Shown here: positions 30,783 to 33,280 of the stretch, piece after piece
Layout: the number at the start of each line of letters is the position of its first letter
How positions within the stretch are numbered: position 1 is the stretch's first letter
IMG/VR virus record: IMGVR_UViG_2897341779_000002
Source: a virus
Taxonomy: Duplodnaviria; Heunggongvirae; Uroviricota; Caudoviricetes
DNA length: 42,611 nucleotides
Strand: one strand, 5' to 3'
Program-made: the position numbers and the translations under genes
The notes under the pieces: model-generated
Told to the model about the DNA's origin: nothing
Seen by the model: only the letters and a program-made list of their open reading frames with translations
The model's database searches: none

Positions 30783-31133
30783 CTAATTTTTATTCTTTGA
30801 TCTCGTCCACAGGTAAAGAAGAGCAATGGCAAGACAGGAAACAGAGAATAGATAACCTACCTCATATGGTGCGCCAAAAAAATTAGCTATTGATACGGGC
30901 AAAAAAGCCGAAGCGATCAGAATTGAAAGGCAAAAAATAAGCCCAGTAACATAGTTTATTAAACTCTTAAATGAGAAACGTTTTGCTTGATTTACGGTCT
31001 CAGCGAGTGATCGCTTAACGATGGATAAAAGCAAATAGATGGCGACAGTAGCTAATGCCCCTTTCCACCAGTCTGGATATAGTTTTGCGACAATCAGCCC
31101 AAGGAAAACCATGATGACAGACTGAGCATTCAC
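30783..31133 (-). CDS. small inner-membrane protein (three predicted TM helices) at the sieA position
   Basis: 116-aa hydrophobic ORF convergent with gp16; P22 carries sieA here. No sequence identity is claimed. Confidence 0.55.
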   Translation of the reverse strand: MNAQSVIMVFLGLIVAKLYPDWWKGALATVAIYLLLSIVKRSLAETVNQAKRFSFKSLINYVTGLIFCLSILIASAFLPVSIANFFGAPYEVGYLFSVSCLAIALLYLWTRSKNKN

Positions 31134-31308
31134 ACCAACCTCCTTAGTTTTGCGCAGGATACCAGATGATGTATAGGAGTGGGAGTAAAGTTAGTCGGTG
31201 ATAGAACGGTGGTTGCATAATGATATCACGTGACGTAAACTTATTGCGCATAGCGTGTATTCAATGGATGCATAGCTATTGATAATCTCCGATAAGAAGG
31301 AGGTTTGT

Positions 31309-31875
31309 ATGAGCAATGAGACTAATGGGATTGATGAAATGTTTAGCTTGAACGCTGCCAAAGCTGGAGTCGCAATAGGTTTGCTATTACAGCAAGCTTC
31401 TGCGTTCAGTTGTGAGGTGGTTGTTACTGATAACGTTCAGCACGCTTACCATCAATCCTCATTCAGCAGTGAACGGGCTAATGATGAGCTTCATGAGGCG
31501 GTGTCTTCGATTAAAGAATTGTCTCGAATGCTGAAATACGCTTATCGTGTTCTTGCAAACGCTACCGATGAGAATGTAGACAATGTGTTGTCTATCATTG
31601 AACCAGAAAAGTCTCGATTGATAGAGCATCAATTGAGAGGACTTGAAGGGGCAATGAAATCGGTATTCAAAGAAGCTTCTGCTGATTTTAAAGAGATCGC
31701 AAGAGATATCTATATCGTTGTTGCTGATGCCAGATCTGCCGTAACCAACCTGAATAGTCTTATTAAACAACGCTCATGTGTTCCGGTTGTTTTTGATAGT
31801 TCCGTAGATATGGCTGGTTTGCGTGCGCTTGCTGAGCACGGGACTCGTGTGTTTCACTCTGGTAACTTCCACTGA
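31309..31875 (+). CDS. hypothetical protein (188 aa), upstream partner of the YafO-like gene
   Basis: ATG 31309 preceded by AAGGAGG at 5-nt spacing; stop 31873..31875 lies 8 nt before the next ATG; no domain recognised. Confidence 0.7.
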   Translation: MSNETNGIDEMFSLNAAKAGVAIGLLLQQASAFSCEVVVTDNVQHAYHQSSFSSERANDELHEAVSSIKELSRMLKYAYRVLANATDENVDNVLSIIEPEKSRLIEHQLRGLEGAMKSVFKEASADFKEIARDIYIVVADARSAVTNLNSLIKQRSCVPVVFDSSVDMAGLRALAEHGTRVFHSGNFH

Positions 31876-31883
31876 GGTAAAAC

Positions 31884-32333
31884 ATGCAAGTAACCGTGGA
31901 ATATAATCAGGATAGTTTTGACTATTTTTTCTCCCCGGTTTTTGTTGAGTTTCCTGATTTAAAACAAACACTTGTAGATGATTTTATCATCTACAAGTCT
32001 ACGGGAACGTTGCCCAGCTATTTTGGCAGAGACACCTCTTATCATCGACCTCCTGATATTGAAGATGCAGGCCTTATGCACCTTCATTTAGCAATTGGTG
32101 AAAATAAATTTGAGCCAATAAAAAATGGCACAGATATCAGCACACCGCAAAAGTTGCAGTGGCATAAAACATCCAATACCGCTCTCGTTTATGCACAAAA
32201 TCTTTTTGATGAGAACAGGTATTCATTGATTGCTCTTTTTCATCCTGTAGCTCACATGTCTGCTAACAATCATAATAGAATGAGAGTGTTAGCAGGGTAT
32301 GCGAGAGACTTTAGAAACACTATGTTTGACTAA
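31884..32333 (+). CDS. YafO-family toxin-like protein
   Basis: 149-aa product shares motifs with E. coli YafO as I recall it: DFIIYKSTGTLPSYFGRD vs DFISYKRDGVLPDIFGRD; HLHLA vs HIHLA; ALVYAQNLFDE vs HLVYCQGAFDE; SLIALFHPVAH...NNHNRM vs LLIAILKPEPH...RDNNQM. Confidence 0.7.
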   Translation: MQVTVEYNQDSFDYFFSPVFVEFPDLKQTLVDDFIIYKSTGTLPSYFGRDTSYHRPPDIEDAGLMHLHLAIGENKFEPIKNGTDISTPQKLQWHKTSNTALVYAQNLFDENRYSLIALFHPVAHMSANNHNRMRVLAGYARDFRNTMFD

Positions 32334-32334
32334 A

Positions 32335-32357
32335 CCCACCGTCAGGTGGGTTTTTTA
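32335..32357 (+). terminator. terminator hairpin between the convergent YafO-like and ClpP-like genes
   Basis: CCCACC-GTCA-GGTGGG followed by TTTTTTAT. Confidence 0.55.
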
Positions 32358-32381
32358 TAAGGAGTAATCATGATTTACCCA

Positions 32382-32918
32382 TCAAACAACCCACCAGTTT
32401 GCCTGATTGGATGCCAGCCTTGCAGTTTTTATGGAATTAATTATGCCATGCTCAAGAGCCTTGTTAGCATCCAAAATGGTCGAGTCTGCTATCAGGGATG
32501 CCCACCTAATATGGGTTCCGATGTCGATATTGAACGTCTCAACGAAGCGATCAAGATCGTTATCGAGGCATTTCCCGTACTCTCTCAATCTGGCATGGTC
32601 GGCGGCTGGGGAGGCAAAGCACCATAATAGAGGATGTAACAGGAATCTTGATAATGGGTTTGCGAAACGTTCTGAGCCAGCCAGGAAAACGATATTAGCT
32701 ATGGATTCAACATTGCTTATGTTGTGAGTTCTAACGGTAACAGGGAGTGACTTAAGAAAGTTATACGCAGTAAAGCCAGCAGCAGTTTCCCCTCCCTGAC
32801 TTGATATATGGATATTTAATTCAGTTGCGCCTTGAGATAATGCGGTGAGACAGTGGTTCTGAAGTTGCCCAACAGTGGCAGTGTTAACAGGGCATAAGAA
32901 ATGAATTGTGTGCAGCAT
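32382..32918 (-). CDS. ClpP/S14-S49-fold serine peptidase-like protein (178 aa)
   Basis: ISSQGGETAAGFTAYNFL aligns with the ClpP INSPGG...AG segment and a His is conserved near LHPLLW; ATG overlaps the mnt stop (TAATG). Confidence 0.6.
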   Translation of the reverse strand: MLHTIHFLCPVNTATVGQLQNHCLTALSQGATELNIHISSQGGETAAGFTAYNFLKSLPVTVRTHNISNVESIANIVFLAGSERFANPLSRFLLHPLLWCFASPAADHARLREYGKCLDNDLDRFVETFNIDIGTHIRWASLIADSTILDANKALEHGIINSIKTARLASNQANWWVV

Positions 32919-33166
32919 TATTTTTCATCCTTAGCATACATGGTCTTTAGCGTCTCAAGTAGCGCCTCTTTGAATTTATCAGCTTCTTGCTGAGCAAATG
33001 ACTCAACTGACTTTGGCGACCTATCTTCATCAATCGCGGCTTGCAAAATCATGACGATCTCGGAGTTAACAGAGCGACCATTTTTTGATGCTCTGACAGC
33101 AAGAGCCTCGCGTAAAGATTCAGGGATTCTTACCGTAGTTGGAGAAATTGACACACCCTTTGCCAT
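32918..33166 (-). CDS. mnt: Mnt repressor (ribbon-helix-helix)
   Basis: From the internal Met the 82-aa product MAKGVSISPTTVRIPESLREALAVRASKNGRSVNSEIVMILQAA... resembles P22 Mnt (NGRSMNSE motif). Confidence 0.8.
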   Translation of the reverse strand: MAKGVSISPTTVRIPESLREALAVRASKNGRSVNSEIVMILQAAIDEDRSPKSVESFAQQEADKFKEALLETLKTMYAKDEK

Positions 33167-33280
33167 ATAACACCTTTGGTATTCAATTTGATAGCAAAGT
33201 GTATGCAAAAAAATTTTGACTAGATATACTCACTTTGCTATCTTTTGTATTCGAAAAGAGTTGTTTGCGTGGAGGGTAAC
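33167..33280. promoter_or_regulatory. immI control region (Pant/Pmnt with operator-like inverted repeat)
   Basis: Perfect 11-bp inverted repeat ATAGCAAAGTG (33203..33213) / CACTTTGCTAT (33231..33241) flanking TTGACT; TATCTT follows 17 bp after TTGACT; lies between divergent mnt and arc. Confidence 0.55.

Follow-up and report, generated by a model that had tools for sequence, protein, structure and literature searches.

A YafO-family gene and its dedicated partner form a candidate toxin-antitoxin cassette carried by a P22-like prophage and other mobile elements

The viral DNA filed as IMG/VR record IMGVR_UViG_2897341779_000002 (Caudoviricetes; 42,611 nucleotides (nt), the whole of which is called the window below) carries on its plus strand a two-gene cassette that is probably a type II-like toxin-antitoxin system whose antitoxin would belong to a new family. 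The upstream open reading frame (ORF A) encodes a protein of 188 residues and the downstream one (ORF B) a protein of 149 residues, and the gap between them is exactly 8 nt (Table 1), in agreement with an earlier note, made from the DNA letters alone, that had proposed the operon as a new toxin-antitoxin or phage-exclusion pair. This region of the window is 100% identical to the P22-like prophage of Escherichia coli ATCC 11775, APEC O1, S88 and related strains, in which RefSeq names A a "hypothetical protein" and B a "type II toxin-antitoxin system YafO family toxin". Homologues detected at the protein level in many taxa, with length conserved, together with the assignment of both proteins to PHROG families, indicate that A and B are real genes. 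Of 5426 complete E. coli genomes, 55 have the intact pair, nearly clonal at 99% identity or more, and the exact proteins of the window are each present on at least 1000 public contigs.

Strict pairing of ORF A with a YafO-family gene

The proposed relationship of B to YafO is significant. The protein matches Pfam PF13957 (YafO_toxin) with E=3.4e-22 and 78.9 bits (gathering cutoff 25), covering positions 3-101 of the 101-position model, and all 16 homologues that were returned have PF13957 too. Over 120 residues it shares 38% identity with K-12 YafO (E=7e-20). The motifs found in both B and K-12 YafO (DF..YK..G.LP..FGRD..Y, the HxH pair H66/H68, LVY, DE and P..H124) are invariant or nearly so in 15 homologues. 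However, B reaches 79 bits against the NCBIfam YafO equivalog PRK09885, below its cutoff of 153, and bears a family-specific N-terminal region of about 28 residues unlike that of K-12 YafO. B is best classed as a member of the YafO family and not as an orthologue or equivalog of the K-12 protein. Its best structural matches are all RelE-type toxins (HigB, RelE and YafQ), and no solved structure of a YafO relative was detectable by sequence search.

Protein A belongs to PHROG 8416, a family of unknown function, and as had been proposed it shows no recognizable domain. It matches no family of Pfam, NCBIfam or PADLOC, and when the Pfam search was repeated on all 26 members of the A family no hit recurred in more than one of them. 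No PhdYeFM or other antitoxin Pfam domain is present in these 26 sequences, no DNA-binding domain was recognizable in A, and the PDB holds no detectable relative of A even for the 26-sequence profile. The claim that A looks nothing like YafN was also borne out (BLASTP E=36). Relatives are few: an exhaustive profile search of 1.84 billion representatives gave 24, and a word-indexed search gave six clusters. The family members are 167-205 residues long, and all public sources annotate them as "hypothetical", save for a single phage record that says "YafM antitoxin" on an unstated basis. Structure prediction, which the earlier note had recommended for both proteins, returned a generic fold for A: the AlphaFold2 model (mean predicted local distance difference test score, pLDDT, of 70) is an all-helical bundle, after which come a floppy linker and a helix at the C-terminus (residues 168-183), fold searches with it found generic helical bundles only, and no Foldseek match among viral models had E below 0.04. 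Four blocks are conserved, at residues 11-35, 99-122 (QLRGLEG), 136-156 (ARSA..LN.LI.Q) and 168-188 (GLRALA.HGT.VF.SG.FH), and in nearly all members the last residue is His, preceded by an aromatic or aliphatic one. As far as these searches reach, A belongs to no described family. It stood beside a YafO gene in every locus inspected.

The linkage between the two genes is strict and ancient. The survey covers about 45 distinct loci, in prophage accessory slots, HK639, Pseudomonas phages, a phage-plasmid and a Klebsiella IncFIB plasmid; it was seeded with a closer A alignment and not with the more divergent 26-sequence one, and the paired A-B alignment comprises 18 distinct pairs. B lies immediately 3' of A in 36 of the 36 loci collected at that point (among them 31 of the 31 retrieved with A), A lies upstream in all 27 testable viral loci retrieved with B, and the six most distant A relatives checked all precede a PF13957 gene. 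Co-occurrence is absolute in both directions among the loci inspected, so the conservation of the gene pair that the earlier note had put forward as a check extends across very different mobile elements. The pair is found in HK639 (gp17/gp18), E. coli phage PhiR40_1, Pseudomonas phage YMC11/02/R656 and Klebsiella phage-plasmid pJN2-26, whose partner proteins match the A profile with E=2e-63 to 1e-14. In Klebsiella pneumoniae IncFIB plasmid NZ_CP083052.1 (A against the profile, E=5e-62) IS5 copies flank the pair, which adjoins lacY/lacZ, the junction is of 8 nt and B starts with TTG. A total of 620 plasmid records, most of them large non-mobilizable plasmids from Klebsiella and Enterobacter, carry a homologue about 51% identical to B; the partner was checked in one of them.

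The junction itself is conserved. The 8-nt gap with its TGAGG sequence, in which the stop codon of A overlaps the ribosome-binding site of B, is present in 18 of the 20 distinct cassettes tabulated, and by our count B starts with TTG in 12 of these, with ATG in seven and with GTG in one. Mean pairwise identity is 0.45 for A vs 0.56 for B, which points to a faster evolution of A.

The surroundings of the pair vary. It lies in tail-gene slots (L002, L004 and HK639), in the gap between the Q antiterminator and holin genes (L005), beside integrases (L037, L077), in the P22 sieA slot and on plasmids. In one metagenomic prophage lineage (L075:1315-3189, L076:457-2331) it follows directly, on the same strand, a gene for a CI-like repressor (HTH + Peptidase_S24), the position that rexAB occupies in lambda; this suggests that A and B are co-expressed with the repressor in lysogens of that lineage. 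The flanking genes differ completely from one context to another, and in the window A is the sole protein-coding partner that travels with B. The moving unit therefore consists of promoter, leader, A, B and terminator, and its distribution over plasmids and repressor-adjacent, Q-holin, tail, integrase and sieA-slot positions matches that of addiction or defence cargo.

Candidate antitoxin role of A and competing explanations

In the mechanism that we favor, B would be a YafO-family endoribonuclease of RelE fold that cuts mRNA and arrests translation, an activity extrapolated from that of K-12 YafO, and A, the founding member of an unnamed helical family, would be its dedicated partner and hold it inactive by direct binding. 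Translation of A would come first, from its strong ribosome-binding site, and that of B would follow by coupling, in most relatives from the weak TTG start; coupling and weak starts together imply that A should be in excess. Conservation marks the invariant C-terminal S-G-x-F-H end, the QLRGLEG and ARSA..LN.LI.Q blocks and the N-terminal helix as candidate contact elements. Loss or inactivation of A, for instance upon loss of the element or when an infecting phage shuts off host expression, would then free B. Judging from genomic position, the role may be stabilization of prophages and plasmids, abortion of superinfecting phages, or both.

The assignment of A as the antidote follows from carriage: a YafO-type toxin that is stably carried needs an antidote, and A is the only protein-coding companion that B has in the window. 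The operon has the typical grammar of toxin-antitoxin pairs, with the partner first, an 8-nt gap, overlap of stop codon and ribosome-binding site and TTG starts for B. Among the features generic to type II systems, a bicistronic arrangement with an adjacent and co-inherited partner is present. Autoregulation of the operon by a DNA-binding antitoxin was not found, and the TCACGTGA palindrome of the window is not conserved.

Two independent natural frameshifts fall near the 5' end of B. In strain SF-088 (L080) one nucleotide is deleted at position 31937, beside or in the CCCCGG run 31933..31938, and RefSeq annotates a truncated YafO; in L010/L055 one nucleotide is inserted in the T6 run 31925..31930. 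A is intact in both cases. The reverse case, A disrupted and B intact, was not seen among the listed complete E. coli genomes of the 55 carriers, all of which annotate both genes. Small as the numbers are, frameshifts confined to B would fit what a toxin-antidote relationship predicts.

Several points weigh against this interpretation. Both frameshifts fall within or beside homopolymer runs, and they may be real toxin-inactivating mutations or sequencing errors. With 188 residues and no recognizable DNA-binding domain, A is large for an antitoxin, and the predicted sequestration of its ribosome-binding site in a hairpin (see below) would be odd for a protein needed in excess. Neither protein matches a defence model: in PADLOC-DB v2 B found no match, and A only a spurious 14-bit match to the ZorA tail. 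Toxicity, neutralization and binding are all inferred. Finally, the N-terminus of A, on which the earlier note made no remark, resembles a Sec signal peptide in most members of the family, with a basic start, an apolar run of 9-19 residues and a small-x-small site, and a signal peptide would place A and B in different compartments.

It is possible, though we hold it to be rather unlikely, that the pair is a toxin-antitoxin system of a purely selfish kind, an addiction cassette that stabilizes prophages and plasmids by post-segregational killing and plays no part in phage exclusion. The 620 plasmid records with a B homologue, of which the one inspected (IncFIB) has the full cassette, would suit this explanation, as would carriage on a phage-plasmid, the lack of any PADLOC match and the near-clonal state in E. 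coli described above, which is expected for cargo that hitch-hikes with one prophage. However, the cassette recurs after a CI-like repressor, in the P22 sieA slot and in slots of the tail region, that is, at positions of exclusion genes; rexAB, sieA and HK97 gp15 are exclusion genes expressed in lysogens from such positions. The addiction and exclusion roles are not mutually exclusive.

A very improbable explanation is that B does not arrest growth in this setting and is an attenuated or phage-directed RNase, with A as its chaperone, activator or specificity subunit and the pair serving phage development. The sub-threshold score of B against the YafO equivalog, its family-specific N-terminal region and the location of several cassettes within late operons (tail region, Q-holin gap) would agree with it, but the residues invariant in the B family are also those of K-12 YafO, the cassette has promoter-like and terminator elements of its own and is carried by a non-phage plasmid, and the natural frameshifts are confined to B.

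The resemblance to a signal peptide, read from composition and hydrophobicity, bears on a further explanation that we regard as doubtful, namely that A is exported or membrane-associated, by a cleavable Sec signal peptide or a weak signal anchor, and that the pair is a non-canonical one divided between two compartments. The features are clearest in distant members (PhiR40_1, P0032, P0037 and P0044), moderate in the HK639-like group and weakest in A of the window. PhiR40_1 and P0032 have textbook-looking signal peptides, MNPFNAITFAALCGPLACPAAMA|QEF and MNHFKAMSLATMCGVLTQPAALA|EAF, respectively, and in most members a basic n-region (+1 to +4) is followed by an uncharged stretch of 15-27 residues and a small-x-small site at a fixed position. 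The N-terminal segment is the most hydrophobic part of A and is not amphipathic, and residues 36-56, the least conserved and modeled with low confidence, would suit a mature N-terminus. On the other hand, signal peptides are usually the least conserved region of a protein, and this segment ranks with the best-conserved stretches of A (pairwise identity 0.53-0.68 vs 0.45-0.51 overall). In the window the n-region is acidic (net charge -2) and an apolar run of only nine residues gives way to QQ and then ASA|FS. The hydrophobic core is absent in two members, the pJN2-26 partner and P0039, the latter of which retains the N-terminal M-P-aromatic motif, and hydrophobicity over 19 residues is too low for a stable membrane anchor. 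Export would also leave a YafO-type toxin with no cytoplasmic antidote, which is hard to square with stable carriage on plasmids. In a variant of this explanation, put forward as a possibility, A would face the envelope as a helical sensor of superinfection or of damage to the envelope, and its synthesis, its export or a short N-tail in the cytoplasm would control the YafO-like RNase. More improbable still is the undescribed module to which this could amount, a two-compartment immunity system of prophages and plasmids in which an exported or envelope-associated A is combined with a cytoplasmic YafO-like RNase and phage DNA entry or a block of export controls release of the toxin. A Tat or lipoprotein signal in A was rejected: no model matched, RR occurs in only two subfamilies, and by our own reading the residues before Cys are unlike a lipobox.

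Relation to described systems

The closest relative of the putative toxin-antitoxin cassette is K-12 YafN-YafO (dinB-yafN-yafO-yafP), which has a homologous toxin with the FGRD, HxH, DE and P..H motifs of B and the same order of partner and toxin with a very short gap. The antitoxins differ: YafN, 97 residues long and of the Phd/YefM class (PMC3141249), is unrelated to A, which is twice as long, predicted to be all-helical and of an unnamed family. K-12 yafNO is moreover chromosomal, beside dinB, whereas A-B is mobile cargo of phages and plasmids. RelE/ParE type II modules such as RelBE, HigBA and DinJ-YafQ have the RelE-type fold that B matches best and are, like A-B, bicistronic, coupled and borne by mobile elements. 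Their antitoxins combine a DNA-binding domain of the ribbon-helix-helix (RHH), helix-turn-helix (HTH) or Phd type with a short tail that wraps the toxin. A, in contrast, has no domain of these types and no detectable relative among solved structures. Modules of this superfamily, those associated with defence included, have been reviewed (PMC11980606).

In its genomic logic A-B resembles lambda RexAB, P22 SieA and HK97 gp15, small autonomous cassettes in the sieA slot, after the repressor or among tail genes. These systems are built on membrane proteins. A-B has no relation to them in sequence or fold and is built on a putative RNase toxin. Panacea (PanA), reported by Kurata and colleagues in 2022, is said to be a hyperpromiscuous antitoxin domain that pairs with many unrelated toxin families. 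Like the putative antitoxin A, PanA is larger than usual and non-classical, was spotted by its conserved adjacency to toxins and is often found on phage-related elements; A, however, is strictly monogamous and accompanied only YafO-family toxins in every locus examined.

The earlier note was aware of no described system that pairs a YafO-like toxin with a partner of this kind. None was found in PADLOC or in the literature searched (accessions, PF13957, HK639, YafM and related topics), which also held no experimental study of the A-B pair, but surveys had already counted unclassified partners of YafO. Leplae et al. 2011 associated YafO toxins with Phd and with unclassified partners (PMC3141249), a survey of E. 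coli gave 13 partner clusters for YafO, only 0.08 of them known (PMC10790755), and a survey of Pseudomonas prophages lists a phage YafO and names no antitoxin (PMC10449497). What is new, with prior notice limited to such surveys, is the dedicated, unnamed partner family of a YafO-family toxin. Phage-borne YafO "orphans" thus have one dedicated partner family across phages of Enterobacteriaceae and Pseudomonas, a phage-plasmid and at least one Klebsiella IncFIB plasmid, and because every source calls A hypothetical, defining the family would mend a systematic annotation gap. If the proposed antitoxin role is correct, A would be a new antitoxin fold for the RelE/ParE superfamily and the cassette, at about 1.2 kb, a compact candidate for a defence or addiction function from a prophage of extraintestinal pathogenic and avian pathogenic E. 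coli lineages (APEC O1, S88, ATCC 11775). A plain antitoxin would be an incremental addition to a very large class in which new families are found often. The A family is widespread, compact and wholly unannotated, and its signal-peptide-like twist could take it beyond a routine toxin-antitoxin pair.

Regulatory elements, genomic slot and neighboring genes

The elements of the cassette in the window are collected in Table 1.

Table 1. Elements of the A-B cassette in the window
Feature	Position	Strand	Description
Candidate sigma-70 promoter	31213..31241	+	TTGCAT (31213..31218), 17-nt spacer, TAAACT (31236..31241); TCACGTGA palindrome in the spacer at 31226..31233; read from the sequence, putative function
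Leader hairpin	31284..31305	+	AAUCUCC-GAUAAGAA-GGAGGUU, arms 31284..31290 and 31299..31305; pairs an anti-Shine-Dalgarno sequence with the ribosome-binding site of A; putative regulatory role
ORF A	31309..31875	+	188 residues, ATG start; PHROG 8416; AAGGAGG ribosome-binding site at 31297..31303, 5 nt before the start; putative antitoxin or partner
Translational-coupling junction	31873..31886	+	TGA of A (31873..31875) overlaps the GAGG ribosome-binding site of B (31874..31877), 6 nt to the ATG
ORF B	31884..32333	+	149 residues, ATG start; putative YafO-family mRNA endonuclease toxin of RelE/ParE fold
Intrinsic terminator	32332..32359	+	stem AAACCCACC/GGUGGGUUU (32332..32353), loop GUCA, U-run; stem starts inside the stop codon of B

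The promoter proposed by the earlier note is present, and in part the evidence favors it. The match to consensus is weak (7 of 12 positions by our count), the promoter scanner did not list the site, and the region shows no excess of promoter-like sites (4 found vs 6.7 expected). However, in L020, the closest diverged relative (A 68% identical), both hexamers are kept in spite of a diverged spacer, which lends the promoter better support. The TCACGTGA palindrome is gone from L020, and its role as an operator was rejected for that reason. Palindromes overlapping the promoter travel with the cassette in other A-B subfamilies, so A might yet autoregulate the operon through an unrecognized domain.

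The strong ribosome-binding site of A that the earlier note had seen is present, but it is predicted to be sequestered in the leader hairpin. This hairpin appears in both the minimum-energy and the centroid folds of 31248..31325 (-19.7 kcal/mol, z=-2.3), and the consensus structure predicted for the leaders of 16 relatives contains an equivalent CUCC/GGAG hairpin. In Rfam neither the leader of the window nor that of the relatives came near the threshold of any family.

Most A-B cassettes outside the E. coli/Salmonella subgroup have a conserved leader of about 120 nt that is absent from the window and was seen in L002:3285-3425, upstream of gp17 in HK639 (L043) and in 14 other loci (alignment A6). 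It comprises, in order, a perfect palindrome over the -35 region (TTGCTCA-AAAA-TGAGCAA), an extended -10 element (TGgTATTAr), a small hairpin (ACAAC..GTTGT), a GC-rich hairpin with compensatory changes and a T-run, and last an anti-Shine-Dalgarno hairpin. The GC-rich hairpin and T-run could serve as a terminator or attenuator within the leader, or mark where a small RNA ends. In the Klebsiella plasmid subgroup the promoter palindrome is another one, TTGTCGATT-N9-AATCGACAA.

The terminator noted after B is supported by its GC-rich stem of nine base pairs and U-run (-14.9 kcal/mol, z=-2.85); a simple terminator scanner did not list it. Comparable CCCACC/GGTGGG hairpins lie 3' of B in L007, L009, L031 and L037, and a stretch of 42 nt here is also present in P22-like phages that lack A-B. 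With a supported terminator, conserved hexamers of a candidate promoter, a variable slot and at least six kinds of context, the cassette is best described as a phage moron in which promoter, leader, A, B and terminator appear to move as a unit. Prophage morons have been reviewed (PMC3594210).

The accessory position in a P22-like prophage that the earlier note had assigned to the pair is supported by gene order. A-B is bounded by the ejection-protein genes on one side and the mnt/arc/ant region on the other, preceded by a small membrane-protein gene on the minus strand and followed by convergent ClpP-like and Arc/Mnt-like genes, arc, ant, an IS21-family element and the tailspike gene. We take this position to be the sieA/immI accessory slot of P22. 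In the P22-like phage phiv205-1 this slot is occupied by two small genes of no relation to A and B, and the ClpP-like/Arc operon is found without A-B; the slot is therefore variable and the neighboring operon an independent module. A required part for this operon in the cassette was ruled out, given its presence without A-B in phages phiv205-1, EC.P3 and PhiR12, and it stands alongside none of the A-B cassettes inspected elsewhere.

The minus-strand gene divergent from A-B (30783..31133) encodes a multi-pass hydrophobic protein of 116 residues (109 in RefSeq) with no family match and sits where P22 carries sieA. In the Salmonella-like relative L020 the equivalent gene encodes a different small hydrophobic protein, the intergenic region being common to both. 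Convergent to A-B, the Arc/Mnt-like ribbon-helix-helix gene (32918..33208, minus strand) overlaps the start of the gene for a ClpP-like serine protease of 178 residues (32382..32918, minus strand; Pfam CLP_protease, E=2e-11), with which it forms an operon; neither matches any PADLOC model. Just past the terminator, an ORF of 85 residues with a strong AAGGAG ribosome-binding site (32370..32627, plus strand) overlaps the 3' part of the ClpP-like gene in antisense orientation. A match to PHROG 7758 spans the whole of this ORF (E=1e-61), and RefSeq annotates only the ClpP-like gene there. Further downstream, the IS21-family element (ISEc12 istA/istB, 34891 to about 37200) lies between the antirepressor and tailspike genes, and this insertion may impair the prophage in tailspike expression.

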